Made by a program: the position numbers and the translations under genes
The notes under the pieces: model-generated
What the model was told of the DNA's origin: nothing
Databases searched by the model: none
The model's input: only the letters and a program-made list of their open reading frames with translations
Source: Escherichia coli
Lineage (GTDB): Bacteria; Pseudomonadota; Gammaproteobacteria; Enterobacterales; Enterobacteriaceae
Direction: 5' to 3' (one strand)
Length of the DNA: 64,000 nt
Assembly: GCF_003790525.1 (NCBI RefSeq)
Contig: NZ_CP033635.1
Shown here: piece after piece, positions 953 through 21,106 of the stretch
How the letters are laid out: every line of letters starts with the position of its first letter
Position numbering within the stretch: position 1 is the stretch's first letter

Positions 953-1312
953 TTAACCCACGATTTCCAGTACCTGCTCCGGTGGACGACCAATCCGCGC
1001 TTTGCCATTCGCGACCACAATCGGGCGCTCCATTAGCTTTGGATTATCCACCATTGCCTGAATCAGCGCCCCTTCGCTAAGCGAACTGTCAGCCAGGTTC
1101 AGTTCTTTATAAAGATCCTCTTTCTGGCGCATCAATTCACGAGCGCTATTCATTCCCAGCATTTTCAGCAAATCACGCAGCGTTGCCGCATCGGCGGGTG
1201 TCTGAAGGTAGAGCACCACTTCTGGCTCCACGCCGTTTTCTTTCAGCAGGTTCAGCGTTTCCCGGCTCTTTGAACAGCGTGGGTTATGGTAGATTTTTAC
1301 CTGTTTGGTCAT
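953..1312 (-). CDS. yfgD: ArsC-family putative arsenate reductase
   Basis: 119-aa ORF matching YfgD length; sits 20 bp downstream of bepA on the same strand. Confidence 0.85.
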   Translation of the reverse strand: MTKQVKIYHNPRCSKSRETLNLLKENGVEPEVVLYLQTPADAATLRDLLKMLGMNSARELMRQKEDLYKELNLADSSLSEGALIQAMVDNPKLMERPIVVANGKARIGRPPEQVLEIVG

Positions 1313-1332: not shown

Positions 1333-2796
1333 TTACATCTTGGTATAAGGCTTAAAGCGTTCCTGCAGCTGGCGCAACTGGTCGATGCGCGCATCGTAAC
1401 GCGCTTGTTGCAGGCTGCCTAATTTCACCTGCGAACTGGCGCTACTCAACAAGGAAATGGCCTGATCGAGTCGCCCGGCGAGCGCATAACCTTCTGCTCG
1501 CGCAGCCAGTTCCTGATCGCGGTTATTTAGCGCGGCTTCCGCCTGTGCCAGTAAATCCCAGCCGTTGCTGTCATCTTTATTATTAAAAGTGTAGCGATTC
1601 AGAATATTGGCCGCTTCTTGTGGTTGACCGCCTTGCAGATAAGCGTTCGCCAGGTTGAGCTGCAACACCGGATTGGTGCGCAAATCACGGGCATTTTTCA
1701 GGCGATTGATTGCCTCATTGGCTTTGTTTTGCCCAAGATCGATATCGGTAGCCAGATCGAGATACCATGCGTTACCAGGTTCTGCCGCCAGTAACGGTTG
1801 CAGCGTTTTACGCGCCTCATCGTATTTATTGGCTTCCATCGCCTGTAGAGCACGACCATATTGCGCCGCTCGTTGCTGACGAACGTTTCCTTTCGCCCAT
1901 TCATCCAGCAAATCACTGGTGAGCTGGTTACGTCCGGAATTATACATCCCCAGTGTGCGCACTTTTGCCAGATAGAAATCTTCTGACGATTGCACCACCA
2001 TCGGGCGCATCTGATTGGCACGGTTACGGGCATCAGCCAGACGGCTTTCCGGTAGTGGGTGAGTGAGCAGAATTTCTGGTGGGCGCGAGGAGTAACGCGC
2101 CTGATCGAGTAATTTTTCGAGGAAGGTCGGCATCGCCTGCGGATCGAATCCCGAGCGTTGCAGCACCTGAATACCAATGCGGTCCGCTTCCTGTTCATTT
2201 TGCTGGGTGAAACTGATCATCCCCTGGCGCGTTCCCGCCAGTGTACCGGTCAGCGCCGCCATCCCCGCCTGCGGACTGGCCATCGCCAGTAAAATAGAAC
2301 CTAACGCGCCGACCCAGGTCAGCGGCGCGCTGCGCTGCTGATCTTCCATCGCTCGCGCCAGGTGACGTTGGGTGACGTGGGAGATTTCGTGCGCCATAAC
2401 TGAAGCCAGTTGACTTTCGTTATCGGAATAACGGAACAGGGCAGAGTGCAGCACCACGTTGCCGCCAAAGAAAGCAAAGGCGTTAATTTCGTCGTTGTTG
2501 ATCAGAAAGAAATGAAACGGTGTCTTAACCGAATTGGCATGCGAAACCAGACGCATCCCCAGCGAATTAATATATTGCGTTAACAGCGGGTCATTAATTA
2601 ACGGCGCGCTGCCGCGTAGCTGGCGGACATAATAGTCGCCCATCTGCATTTCCTGGCCAATGGAAAGCGTGCTTCCTGCGGAGGTTCCCATATCCGGCAA
2701 GGTGTCTGCGCTGTCGGCAAACGCCGGGGCTACCTGACCAATGGTCATAGCAGCAATGAGGGTTGCAACCAGGTTTTTTTTCAACTGCCTGAACAT
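1333..2796 (-). CDS. bepA: Periplasmic M48 zinc metalloprotease/chaperone with TPR repeats (beta-barrel assembly-enhancing protease)
   Basis: 487-aa ORF with signal peptide, HEISH zinc motif ([12 protein letters not shown]) and a C-terminal TPR-like region; synteny with yfgD. Confidence 0.9.
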
Positions 2797-2827
2797 AACC
2801 TCTATCCTGTATTTCTGAAGATAGTCA

Positions 2828-2855
2828 TTTGACCGATACTGTGAAATATCGTTCC
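2828..2855 (-). promoter_or_regulatory. Candidate sigmaE-type promoter for bepA (-35 GGAACGA, 16-nt spacer, -10 TCAAA on minus strand)
   Basis: Minus strand reads GGAACGA-N16-TCAAA about 30 nt upstream of the bepA start; bepA/yfgC is recalled as a sigmaE regulon member. Confidence 0.4.
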
Positions 2856-3008
2856 CACCGCGCCGCCTTTGAGTGTAACGGCGAAGATTAGCCCACTCAA
2901 ATGACTTTTCAGTTTCCTGAATCCGTCATAAAAAGCGAAGTCTTTTTTGTGACATTTCGATACAATTGCGGATCGCAATCCCGCTCTTGAGGTTCAGGGA
3001 AGGTCTTT

Positions 3009-4070
3009 ATGCTCGAAATGTTGATGCAATGGTATCGCCGCCGTTTTAGCGACCCGGAAGCGATTGCCTTGCTGGTTATTTTAGTTGCCGGATTTGGCAT
3101 TATCTTTTTCTTTAGTGGCCTGCTTGCTCCGTTGCTGGTGGCTATTGTGCTGGCCTATTTGCTGGAATGGCCAACCGTGCGCCTGCAATCTATTGGCTGC
3201 TCCCGCCGCTGGGCGACGTCGATTGTATTGGTGGTTTTCGTCGGTATATTGCTACTGATGGCGTTCGTGGTGCTGCCTATCGCCTGGCAACAGGGCATCT
3301 ACTTAATCCGCGATATGCCGGGGATGCTCAATAAGCTTTCTGACTTTGCCGCCACGTTGCCGCGCCGCTATCCGGCGTTAATGGACGCGGGCATTATTGA
3401 TGCAATGGCCGAAAATATGCGCAGTCGGATGCTGACCATGGGCGATTCGGTGGTGAAAATTTCCCTCGCCTCGCTGGTCGGTTTGCTGACCATAGCCGTC
3501 TATCTGGTGCTGGTGCCATTGATGGTCTTCTTCCTGCTGAAAGACAAAGAGCAGATGCTGAACGCCGTTCGTCGGGTGCTGCCGCGTAACCGTGGGCTGG
3601 CAGGACAGGTGTGGAAGGAGATGAATCAACAAATCACCAACTATATCCGCGGCAAAGTGCTGGAGATGATCGTGGTGGGGATCGCCACCTGGCTGGGGTT
3701 CTTACTCTTCGGGCTGAACTATTCGCTGCTGCTGGCGGTGCTGGTCGGCTTCTCGGTACTTATTCCGTACATTGGTGCATTTGTGGTGACCATTCCGGTG
3801 GTTGGCGTGGCGCTATTCCAGTTTGGTGCTGGCACGGAATTCTGGAGCTGCTTCGCGGTGTATCTGATTATTCAGGCGCTGGACGGCAACCTGTTAGTAC
3901 CTGTGTTGTTCTCCGAAGCGGTTAACCTGCATCCGCTGGTCATTATTTTATCAGTAGTGATCTTCGGTGGTTTGTGGGGATTCTGGGGCGTATTCTTCGC
4001 CATTCCATTGGCGACGCTGATCAAAGCCGTGATTCACGCCTGGCCCGATGGGCAAATCGCGCAAGAATAA
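3009..4070 (+). CDS. perM: AI-2E family inner-membrane permease
   Basis: 353-aa highly hydrophobic ORF matching YfgO/PerM; divergent from bepA. Confidence 0.85.
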   Translation: MLEMLMQWYRRRFSDPEAIALLVILVAGFGIIFFFSGLLAPLLVAIVLAYLLEWPTVRLQSIGCSRRWATSIVLVVFVGILLLMAFVVLPIAWQQGIYLIRDMPGMLNKLSDFAATLPRRYPALMDAGIIDAMAENMRSRMLTMGDSVVKISLASLVGLLTIAVYLVLVPLMVFFLLKDKEQMLNAVRRVLPRNRGLAGQVWKEMNQQITNYIRGKVLEMIVVGIATWLGFLLFGLNYSLLLAVLVGFSVLIPYIGAFVVTIPVVGVALFQFGAGTEFWSCFAVYLIIQALDGNLLVPVLFSEAVNLHPLVIILSVVIFGGLWGFWGVFFAIPLATLIKAVIHAWPDGQIAQE

Positions 4071-19176: not shown

Positions 19177-20055
19177 ATGTTCACGGGAAGTATTGTCGCG
19201 ATTGTTACTCCGATGGATGAAAAAGGTAATGTCTGTCGGGCTAGCTTGAAAAAACTGATTGATTATCATGTCGCCAGCGGTACTTCGGCGATCGTTTCTG
19301 TTGGCACCACTGGCGAGTCCGCTACCTTAAATCATGACGAACATGCTGATGTGGTGATGATGACGCTGGAGCTGGCTGACGGGCGCATTCCGGTGATTGC
19401 CGGGACCGGTGCTAACGCTACTGCGGAAGCCATTAGCCTGACGCAGCGCTTCAATGACAGCGGTATCGTCGGCTGCCTGACGGTAACCCCTTACTACAAT
19501 CGTCCGTCGCAAGAAGGTTTGTATCAGCATTTCAAAGCCATCGCTGAACATACTGACCTGCCGCAAATTCTGTATAATGTGCCGTCCCGTACTGGCTGCG
19601 ATCTGCTCCCGGAAACGGTGGGCCGTCTGGCGAAAGTAAAAAATATTATCGGAATCAAAGAGGCAACAGGGAACTTAACGCGTGTAAACCAGATCAAAGA
19701 GCTGGTTTCAGATGATTTTGTTCTGCTGAGCGGCGATGATGCGAGCGCGCTGGACTTCATGCAATTAGGCGGTCATGGGGTTATTTCCGTTACGGCTAAC
19801 GTCGCAGCGCGTGATATGGCCCAGATGTGCAAACTGGCAGCAGAAGGGCATTTTGCCGAGGCACGCGTTATTAATCAGCGTCTGATGCCATTACACAACA
19901 AACTATTTGTCGAACCCAATCCAATCCCTGTGAAATGGGCATGTAAGGAACTGGGTCTTGTGGCGACCGATACGCTGCGCCTGCCAATGACACCTATCAC
20001 CGACAGTGGTCGTGAGACGGTCAGAGCGGCGCTTAAGCATGCCGGTTTGCTGTAA
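19177..20055 (+). CDS. dapA: 4-hydroxy-tetrahydrodipicolinate synthase
   Basis: ATG at 19177 ([18 protein letters not shown]) with AGAGGA RBS; 292 aa. Confidence 0.95.
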
Positions 20056-20071: not shown

Positions 20072-21106
20072 ATGGCTTACTCTGTTCAAAAGTCGCGCCT
20101 GGCAAAGGTTGCGGGTGTTTCGCTTGTTTTATTACTCGCTGCCTGTAGTTCTGACTCACGCTATAAGCGTCAGGTCAGTGGTGATGAAGCCTACCTGGAA
20201 GCGGCACCGCTTGCGGAGCTTCATGCCCCGGCTGGAATGATTTTGCCGGTGACCTCCGGTGATTATGCAATCCCGGTGACCAACGGTAGTGGTGCTGTCG
20301 GTAAGGCGCTGGACATTCGTCCACCAGCCCAGCCGCTGGCACTGGTTTCTGGCGCGCGTACCCAGTTCACGGGCGATACCGCTTCATTGCTGGTGGAAAA
20401 TGGTCGTGGCAATACTCTGTGGCCGCAGGTGGTTAGCGTGCTGCAGGCGAAAAACTACACCATCACCCAACGTGATGATGCTGGTCAGACACTGACCACC
20501 GATTGGGTACAATGGAACCGTCTGGACGAAGACGAGCAGTATCGTGGTCGTTATCAAATCTCTGTTAAGCCGCAGGGTTATCAGCAGGCGGTTACGGTTA
20601 AACTGCTGAACCTGGAACAGGCGGGCAAACCGGTTGCAGACGCGGCTTCCATGCAGCGTTACAGCACGGAGATGATGAACGTTATTTCCGCCGGTCTGGA
20701 TAAATCTGCCACTGACGCCGCGAACGCTGCGCAAAATCGTGCCTCCACCACTATGGACGTACAAAGTGCAGCTGATGACACCGGTTTACCGATGCTGGTC
20801 GTACGCGGGCCGTTCAATGTGGTTTGGCAACGTCTGCCAGCGGCGCTGGAAAAAGTGGGCATGAAAGTGACCGACAGCACCCGTTCGCAGGGTAACATGG
20901 CCGTAACTTACAAGCCGCTGTCTGACAGCGACTGGCAGGAACTGGGCGCGAGCGATCCAGGCCTGGCATCCGGTGACTATAAACTGCAGGTTGGCGATTT
21001 AGATAACCGCAGCAGCCTACAGTTCATCGATCCGAAAGGTCATACTCTGACTCAGAGTCAGAATGACGCGCTGGTAGCTGTCTTCCAGGCTGCGTTTAGC
21101 AAGTAA
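20072..21106 (+). CDS. bamC: Outer-membrane lipoprotein, BAM complex subunit
   Basis: ATG at 20072 ([27 protein letters not shown], lipobox LAAC); 344 aa; 16 bp after dapA. Confidence 0.9.

Follow-up and report, generated by a model that had tools for sequence, protein, structure and literature searches.

A very probable sigmaE promoter upstream of the bepA-yfgD operon of Escherichia coli and its conservation across Enterobacteriaceae

Introduction

BepA keeps watch over LptD and other beta-barrel proteins at the BAM complex, and a promoter read by the envelope-stress sigma factor sigmaE would couple it to the signal of misfolded outer-membrane proteins. The link between BepA and sigmaE is already textbook-level knowledge for the sigmaE regulon. 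In a 64,000-nt stretch of E. coli chromosomal DNA (hereafter the window), a first-pass annotation made from the sequence pointed to a GGAACGA-N16-TCAAA motif upstream of bepA as a sigmaE-like promoter. Is this motif the element from which sigmaE drives bepA, where does transcription start, and could the same letters be explained in another way? We argue here that the site is very probably the sigmaE (RpoE, sigma24) promoter of the bepA-yfgD operon. It is, moreover, a promoter already known, the catalogued yfgC/bepA sigma24 promoter, and not merely a sigmaE-like sequence. Our check is mainly one of quality control, in that a reading of the letters alone had pinpointed a genuine, catalogued promoter with single-base accuracy. 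What we add is a quantified footprint over about 30 genera, in which the blocks and their spacing are fixed, the spacer is free and the +1 A is conserved, together with a few lineage and strain exceptions.

Results

The site lies upstream of bepA-yfgD and follows sigmaE promoter rules

The letters, strand and coordinates of the motif were read again and are correct: GGAACGA, a 16-nt spacer and TCAAA follow one another on the minus strand between 2855 and 2828 (Table 1), within a promoter region whose minus-strand sequence is cggtgGGAACGAtatttcacagtatcggTCAAAtgactATCTTCAG. The gene downstream is indeed bepA, as RefSeq annotation in E. coli genomes has it and as the score of its product against the NCBIfam BepA equivalog NF052400 indicates (742 bits, cut-off 570), and the distance between motif and gene is the sensible one that had been claimed, with the -10 block ending 31 nt upstream of the ATG at 2796. 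Along this part of the chromosome the genes run hda, yfgD, bepA and then the divergent yfgO. A 601-nt query around the site is present in 5,425 of 5,426 complete E. coli genomes, many of the matches being 100% identical and annotated 'bepA | yfgO'. Only 20 nt separate bepA from yfgD, and a scan of this junction found no sigma70-like or other promoter-like site, which fits co-transcription of the two genes. Between the convergent yfgD and hda (848-952), we found no intrinsic-terminator-like hairpin that would end either the bepA-yfgD operon or hda.

Table 1. Coordinates in the window of the bepA promoter elements and of the neighbouring genes.
Feature	Position	Strand	Remarks
-35 element GGAACGA	2849..2855	-	Sequence read; 5/7 against consensus GGAACTT, GGAAC core perfect
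Spacer TATTTCACAGTATCGG, 16 nt	2833..2848	-	Length constrained, sequence mostly free
-10 element TCAAA	2828..2832	-	Perfect consensus; with preceding CGG (2833-2835) gives CGGTCAAA
Discriminator TGACT, 5 nt	2823..2827	-	
Predicted transcription start A	2822	-	NC_000913.3 2,616,068; U00096.2 2,614,090 (coordinate mapping)
5' UTR ATCTTCAGAAATACAGGATAGAGGTT, 26 nt, ribosome-binding region included	2797..2822	-	
bepA (yfgC) CDS, 487 aa, beta-barrel assembly-enhancing protease	1333..2796	-	NCBIfam NF052400; RefSeq annotation
yfgD, ArsC-family oxidoreductase, second gene of the operon	953..1312	-	TIGR00014 arsC, 160 bits
yfgO, AI-2E family transporter, divergent neighbour	3009-4070	+	Upstream of bepA, opposite strand

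A TCAAA -10 element with a GG extension is a signature of enterobacterial RpoE; many other ECF sigma factors use a -10 of the CGTC type, and FecI, the other ECF sigma factor of E. coli, has to our knowledge a single known target operon. From 28 RACE-mapped promoters, Rhodius et al. (2006) describe sigmaE promoters by a -35 block of GGAACTTTT, a -10 block of (T/C)GGTCAAAA, a spacer of 15-19 nt (16 being strongly preferred), a discriminator preferably of 5 or 6 nt, a start at A or G, and 25-28 nt, mostly 26 or 27, from the -35 block to +1. The bepA site agrees with these rules in each block and in its geometry. Its -35 carries the perfect GGAAC core, its extended -10 is CGGTCAAAT (2835-2827, 8 of 9 positions), its spacer has the preferred length, and TGACT is followed by an A at 2822, which leaves 26 nt between GGAACGA and +1. 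The last 2-3 nt of the spacer (CGG) belong to the extended -10, and tCGGTCAAAt at the site agrees with the extended -10 block as published, 'T/CGGTCAAAA'.

An A/T-rich UP element is frequent in sigmaE promoters without being obligatory; it tunes their strength and is no criterion of membership (Rhodius 2012). No such element was found in the 30 nt upstream of GGAAC, which are 37% A+T (the intergenic region as a whole has 56%), and the sequence upstream of the -35 is unconserved (0.24 bits). Because the putative UP region is G+C-rich and the -35 is flanked by GA instead of TT, the bepA promoter is probably of modest strength, which fits the induction of about 2.4-fold reported for yfgC.

Comparison with well-known sigmaE promoters leads to a similar picture. 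Those of degP, bamA, rpoE and rseA share with bepA the two-block layout and the spacer of 16 nt, and their starts fall 6-7 nt past the -10: the rpoE promoter is GGAACTT-N16-TCTAA, that of degP is GGAACTT-N16-TCTGA, and that of bamA, inside rseP, is GGAACTA-N16-TCGAA. The bepA promoter differs from these classical examples in its -35 flank (GA as opposed to TT or TA), in having the full TCAAA consensus with the CGG extension as its -10, and in lacking an A/T-rich upstream region. It also differs in response, with 2.4-fold induction of bepA as opposed to 56-fold for degP in the same experiment (Bury-Mone et al. 2009). Promoters of other ECF sigma factors likewise combine a conserved AAC in the -35 with a short conserved -10, a spacer of rigid length and blocks rich in information, as Rhodius et al. 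(2006) discuss and as is generally known of group IV sigma factors.

Published records report sigmaE induction of bepA-yfgD and point to a probable start at the motif

The first-pass annotation had named bepA as a member of the envelope-stress sigmaE regulon, and the literature bears this out. When sigmaE was overproduced from pZE21-rpoE, yfgC was induced 2.4-fold and yfgD 1.5-fold (b2494-95; Bury-Mone et al. 2009), and that study flags both genes 'Rh', that is, as earlier reported by Rhodius et al. (2006), so two independent rpoE-overexpression transcriptome studies contain induction of yfgC-yfgD. Lacoux et al. (2020) call bepA-yfgD a 'sigmaE-dependent bicistronic operon', and a 2026 preprint includes BepA in the sigmaE regulon.

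A second line of evidence concerns the start site. Table S2 of Cho et al. (2014) lists an entry SigE_54 at 2,613,790-2,614,190, beside RNAP_1223 and SigD_1057. The authors of that study state that they had no ChIP data for sigma24 and that the 65 promoter regions listed for it were imported from RegulonDB. The SigE_n rows stand beside genuine ChIP-chip regions and are easily mistaken for sigmaE binding data; we rejected their reading as sigmaE ChIP peaks, since they are fixed windows taken over from RegulonDB. These imported windows decode as running from TSS-300 to +100 on the plus strand and from TSS-100 to +500 on the minus strand. Under this rule SigE_54, whose limits are those of a TSS-300/+100 span, yields a start at position 2822 of the window, with a decoding uncertainty of about 1 nt (genome coordinates in Table 1), and this is exactly the conserved A that the motif predicts as +1. 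The rule itself could be tested on four promoters, where it holds within 0-2 nt: the degP entry decodes to 180,845, with GGAACTT-N16-TCTGA ending at 180,838; that of bamA to 197,026, with GGAACTA-N16-TCGAA ending at 197,019; that of rpoE to 2,708,109, compared with 2,708,110/11 from the motif; and that of rseA to 2,707,654, compared with 2,707,654/55. Decoding of the rpoE and rseA entries also confirms the 1,978-nt shift between the two genome versions. The RegulonDB entries of skp and lpxD are without a recognisable consensus motif and were unusable for this test.

The promoter so recorded is that of E. coli K-12 (yfgCp/bepAp; the regulon of Rhodius et al. 2006, and SigE_54), with the same locus, the same genes and the same divergent neighbour yfgO. 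Its 38-nt core is identical in the window and in MG1655 (NC_000913.3 2,616,031-2,616,068), and the only strain-level difference from MG1655 yfgCp lies downstream of the start, a T in place of C at window 2818 (+5). Comparison with published sigmaE promoters thus favours the original proposal, as the RegulonDB-derived entry decodes to the start predicted from the motif. A start mapped elsewhere, or a lack of response to sigmaE, would each have spoken against the proposal; both are contradicted, by the retrieved SigE_54 record and by the induction reports. One might take the absence of bepA from the RpoE genomic SELEX of Shimada (2017) as negative evidence, a reading that we rejected, given that degP, fkpA, bamD and lptD are absent from it too. 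A literal search of the literature for the promoter sequence and start-site coordinates returned nothing relevant, and Cappable-seq supplements gave no match.

Conservation across Enterobacteriaceae

If the motif is a working promoter, its blocks should outlast the sequence around them, and we therefore turned to orthologous loci. The scan, of one genome per species, covered about 30 enterobacterial genera and gave 80 bepA loci at 84-99% protein identity; with the window this makes 81 loci, and 65 distinct sequences in an ungapped, motif-anchored alignment. The pattern GAAC-N2-N(15-17)-TCnnA, ending 25-40 nt before the ATG, is present at 76 of the 81, whereas 200 shuffles of the upstream regions left the GAAC-N18-TCnnA motif at 0.28 loci on average and never at more than 2. 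All but one of the 76 motif-keeping loci have a spacer of exactly 16 nt, although the sequence of that spacer is nearly randomised, and their -10 pentamer is TCAAA in 66, TCGAA in 7, TCATA in 2 and TCTTA in 1.

The same division appears in the information per position among the 65 distinct sequences: 1.70 bits for GGAAC and 1.88 for TCAAA, compared with 0.47 for the first 12 nt of the spacer, 1.23 for its last 4 and 0.24 for the 25 nt upstream. The GAAC of the -35 is invariant (65 of 65). Anchoring on the motif inflates the information of the scored columns, but columns that played no part in the anchoring show the same pattern: the G directly 5' of TCAAA is invariant as well (65/65), the base before it is G in 58 of the 65, and the predicted +1, six positions past TCAAA, is A in 57. 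Because the orthologues share ancestry, the shuffle statistics make them look more independent than they are. A better control comes from the near-random spacer and flank, which show that there has been time for neutral positions to diverge.

A further conserved block stands out in the leader. The last 16 nt before the ATG, ACAGGAnAGAGGTT (window 2797-2812, minus strand), are almost invariant in all 80 loci and far more conserved than the remainder of the bepA leader. This block is probably the ribosome-binding region, though it is conserved beyond what a Shine-Dalgarno sequence needs.

Alternative explanations

The most serious alternative is that bepA is driven mainly or additionally by an overlapping sigma70 promoter, with the sigmaE-like blocks secondary. 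BepA must after all be expressed in the absence of stress too, and a consensus scan returned a sole sigma70-like site that overlaps the motif (TTCACA, 16 nt, TATCTT; window 2845..2818; 9 of 12 positions). Its match is weak, with one site found and 0.4 expected in shuffles, and MG1655 has TATCTC in its place, in which the critical final T of a sigma70 -10 is missing. Conservation points in the same direction, given that the hexamer passes the sigma70 -10 criteria in only 3 of 76 orthologous loci, as against 76 of 81 that retain the sigmaE blocks. As for expression in unstressed cells, rpoE is essential in E. coli and active at a basal level, and such basal sigmaE activity can supply it. Experimental sigma70 (SigD_1057) and RNA polymerase (RNAP_1223) ChIP-chip regions do cover the yfgO/bepA intergenic region (Cho et al. 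2014), but the divergent yfgO promoter can account for the sigma70 signal, and the resolution of ChIP-chip cannot separate the two. We regard a leading or joint role for sigma70 as improbable, with the proviso that another sigma factor may act here beside sigmaE and that sigma70 may have a minor share in bepA transcription.

It could also be asked whether the motif is a chance match, the real bepA promoter, sigmaE-dependent or not, lying elsewhere, for instance inside yfgO. Considered as a string of letters, the motif exceeds chance only weakly. GGAAC-N18-TCAAA occurs once on both strands of the 64-kb window where 0.18 occurrences are expected, and at least one match arose in 16 of 100 dinucleotide-preserving shuffles of the window. 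When every position of the window was scored against GGAACTT, a spacer of 15-17 nt and CGGTCAAAA (maximum 16), the bepA site ranked first with 13, but a score of 13 was also reached in 8 of 20 block-shuffled windows, which for a 64-kb search is the level of chance. The bepA motif is significant through its position, its orientation and its conservation. A chance match would not hold its spacing and its offset from the start codon across 76 of 81 loci as the spacer sequence becomes random, the start decoded from the RegulonDB-derived entry is the motif's own, and no other sigmaE-like site scoring at least 10 of 16 was found on the bepA strand between 2797 and 3400. We consider an accidental match very improbable indeed.

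Equally hard to credit is the proposal that the conserved blocks are a transcription-factor site or a leader RNA element rather than sigma recognition elements: conserved blocks do not by themselves reveal which protein reads them, and a PurR-bound region has been reported for the yfgO/yfgC intergenic area (Cho et al. 2011), but the PurR box is elsewhere, at 3054-3069, an Rfam search of 2600-3200 returned no family at E <= 1, the blocks precede the decoded start and so are not transcribed, and the conserved letters, their spacing and the A six bases downstream are exactly the grammar of a sigmaE promoter.

Other sites in the window

Two further sites deserve mention. The PurR box (CCGGAAGCGATTGCCT, plus strand) occurs exactly once in the window, within the 5' end of the yfgO coding sequence and about 200 nt upstream of the sigmaE -35, and it corresponds to the 'yfgO/yfgC' site in the PurR ChIP-chip data of Cho et al. 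(2011).

The second-best match to the sigmaE consensus in the window, GGAACTT-N17-TCAAA, lies inside dapA (19670-19698, plus strand), about 375 nt upstream of bamC (ATG at 20072); its score is at chance level, and the sequence is identical in MG1655. Rhodius et al. (2006) describe bamC/nlpB as sigmaE-induced 'through an unknown mechanism', and purC, which lies downstream, was induced 2.4-fold in Bury-Mone et al. (2009). The RegulonDB-derived entry SigE_6 (Cho et al. 2014) decodes to a sigma24 start at about 19923 on the plus strand, 149 nt upstream of bamC, where we found only TCGAA (19910-19914) and no GGAAC-like -35 at the right distance. We had to reject the identification of SigE_6 with the dapA-internal motif, since a linear offset is invalid across a 47-nt net indel between the strains and SigE_6 decodes elsewhere. 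The dapA-internal motif is thus not the region's RegulonDB sigma24 promoter.

Discussion

With the bepA motif read as a sigmaE promoter, the events that it would serve can be set out as follows. Accumulation of unfolded outer-membrane proteins leads to degradation of the anti-sigma factor RseA and to release of sigmaE, and RNA polymerase carrying sigmaE would then recognise GGAAC as the -35 and CGGTCAAA as the -10 across the optimal 16 nt. Transcription would start at the A at 2822, 26 nt before the bepA ATG, and would yield more of the BepA protease/chaperone and of YfgD. Placing +1 at exactly this base follows from the geometry of the motif, and the database record decodes to the same position.

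Of 5,426 complete E. coli genomes, 4,849 have the 38-nt core from the -35 to +1 unchanged, and the 577 others differ by one base; in both of the genomes sampled among them the variant is C to A at 2843, within the spacer. Just downstream of the core, the T at +5 of the transcript that distinguishes this strain from MG1655 creates the only sigma70-like -10 hexamer found in the region, TATCTT, and could add sigma70 input to bepA in part of the species.

One genome stands apart. E. coli A24 (NZ_CP028751.1) has a deletion of about 186 bp between two CGATA microhomologies (window ~2851-3037), which takes out the start of yfgO, the entire intergenic region and the GGAAC -35 but spares the -10 block and the leader. 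Present in 1 of 5,426 genomes, this deletion may reflect a genuine loss of the promoter or an error of assembly.

Among the enterobacterial loci, no sigmaE-like site was found within 400 nt of bepA (1100-1500) in 'Enterobacteriaceae bacterium UBA7338' or in 'Escherichia sp. ESNIH1'. Three Kosakonia-like loci (L034, L046 and L055) have a degenerate motif at the usual position (~1410-1470), with TCAAT, with TCTTT, or with GAAAT in place of GGAAC. Control of bepA by sigmaE may then not be universal and, if these exceptions are real, some lineages have lost bepA from the envelope-stress regulon by rewiring, a suggestion that we make tentatively and consider rather unlikely. Were it true, such lineages would be natural experiments on how much the induction of BepA matters.
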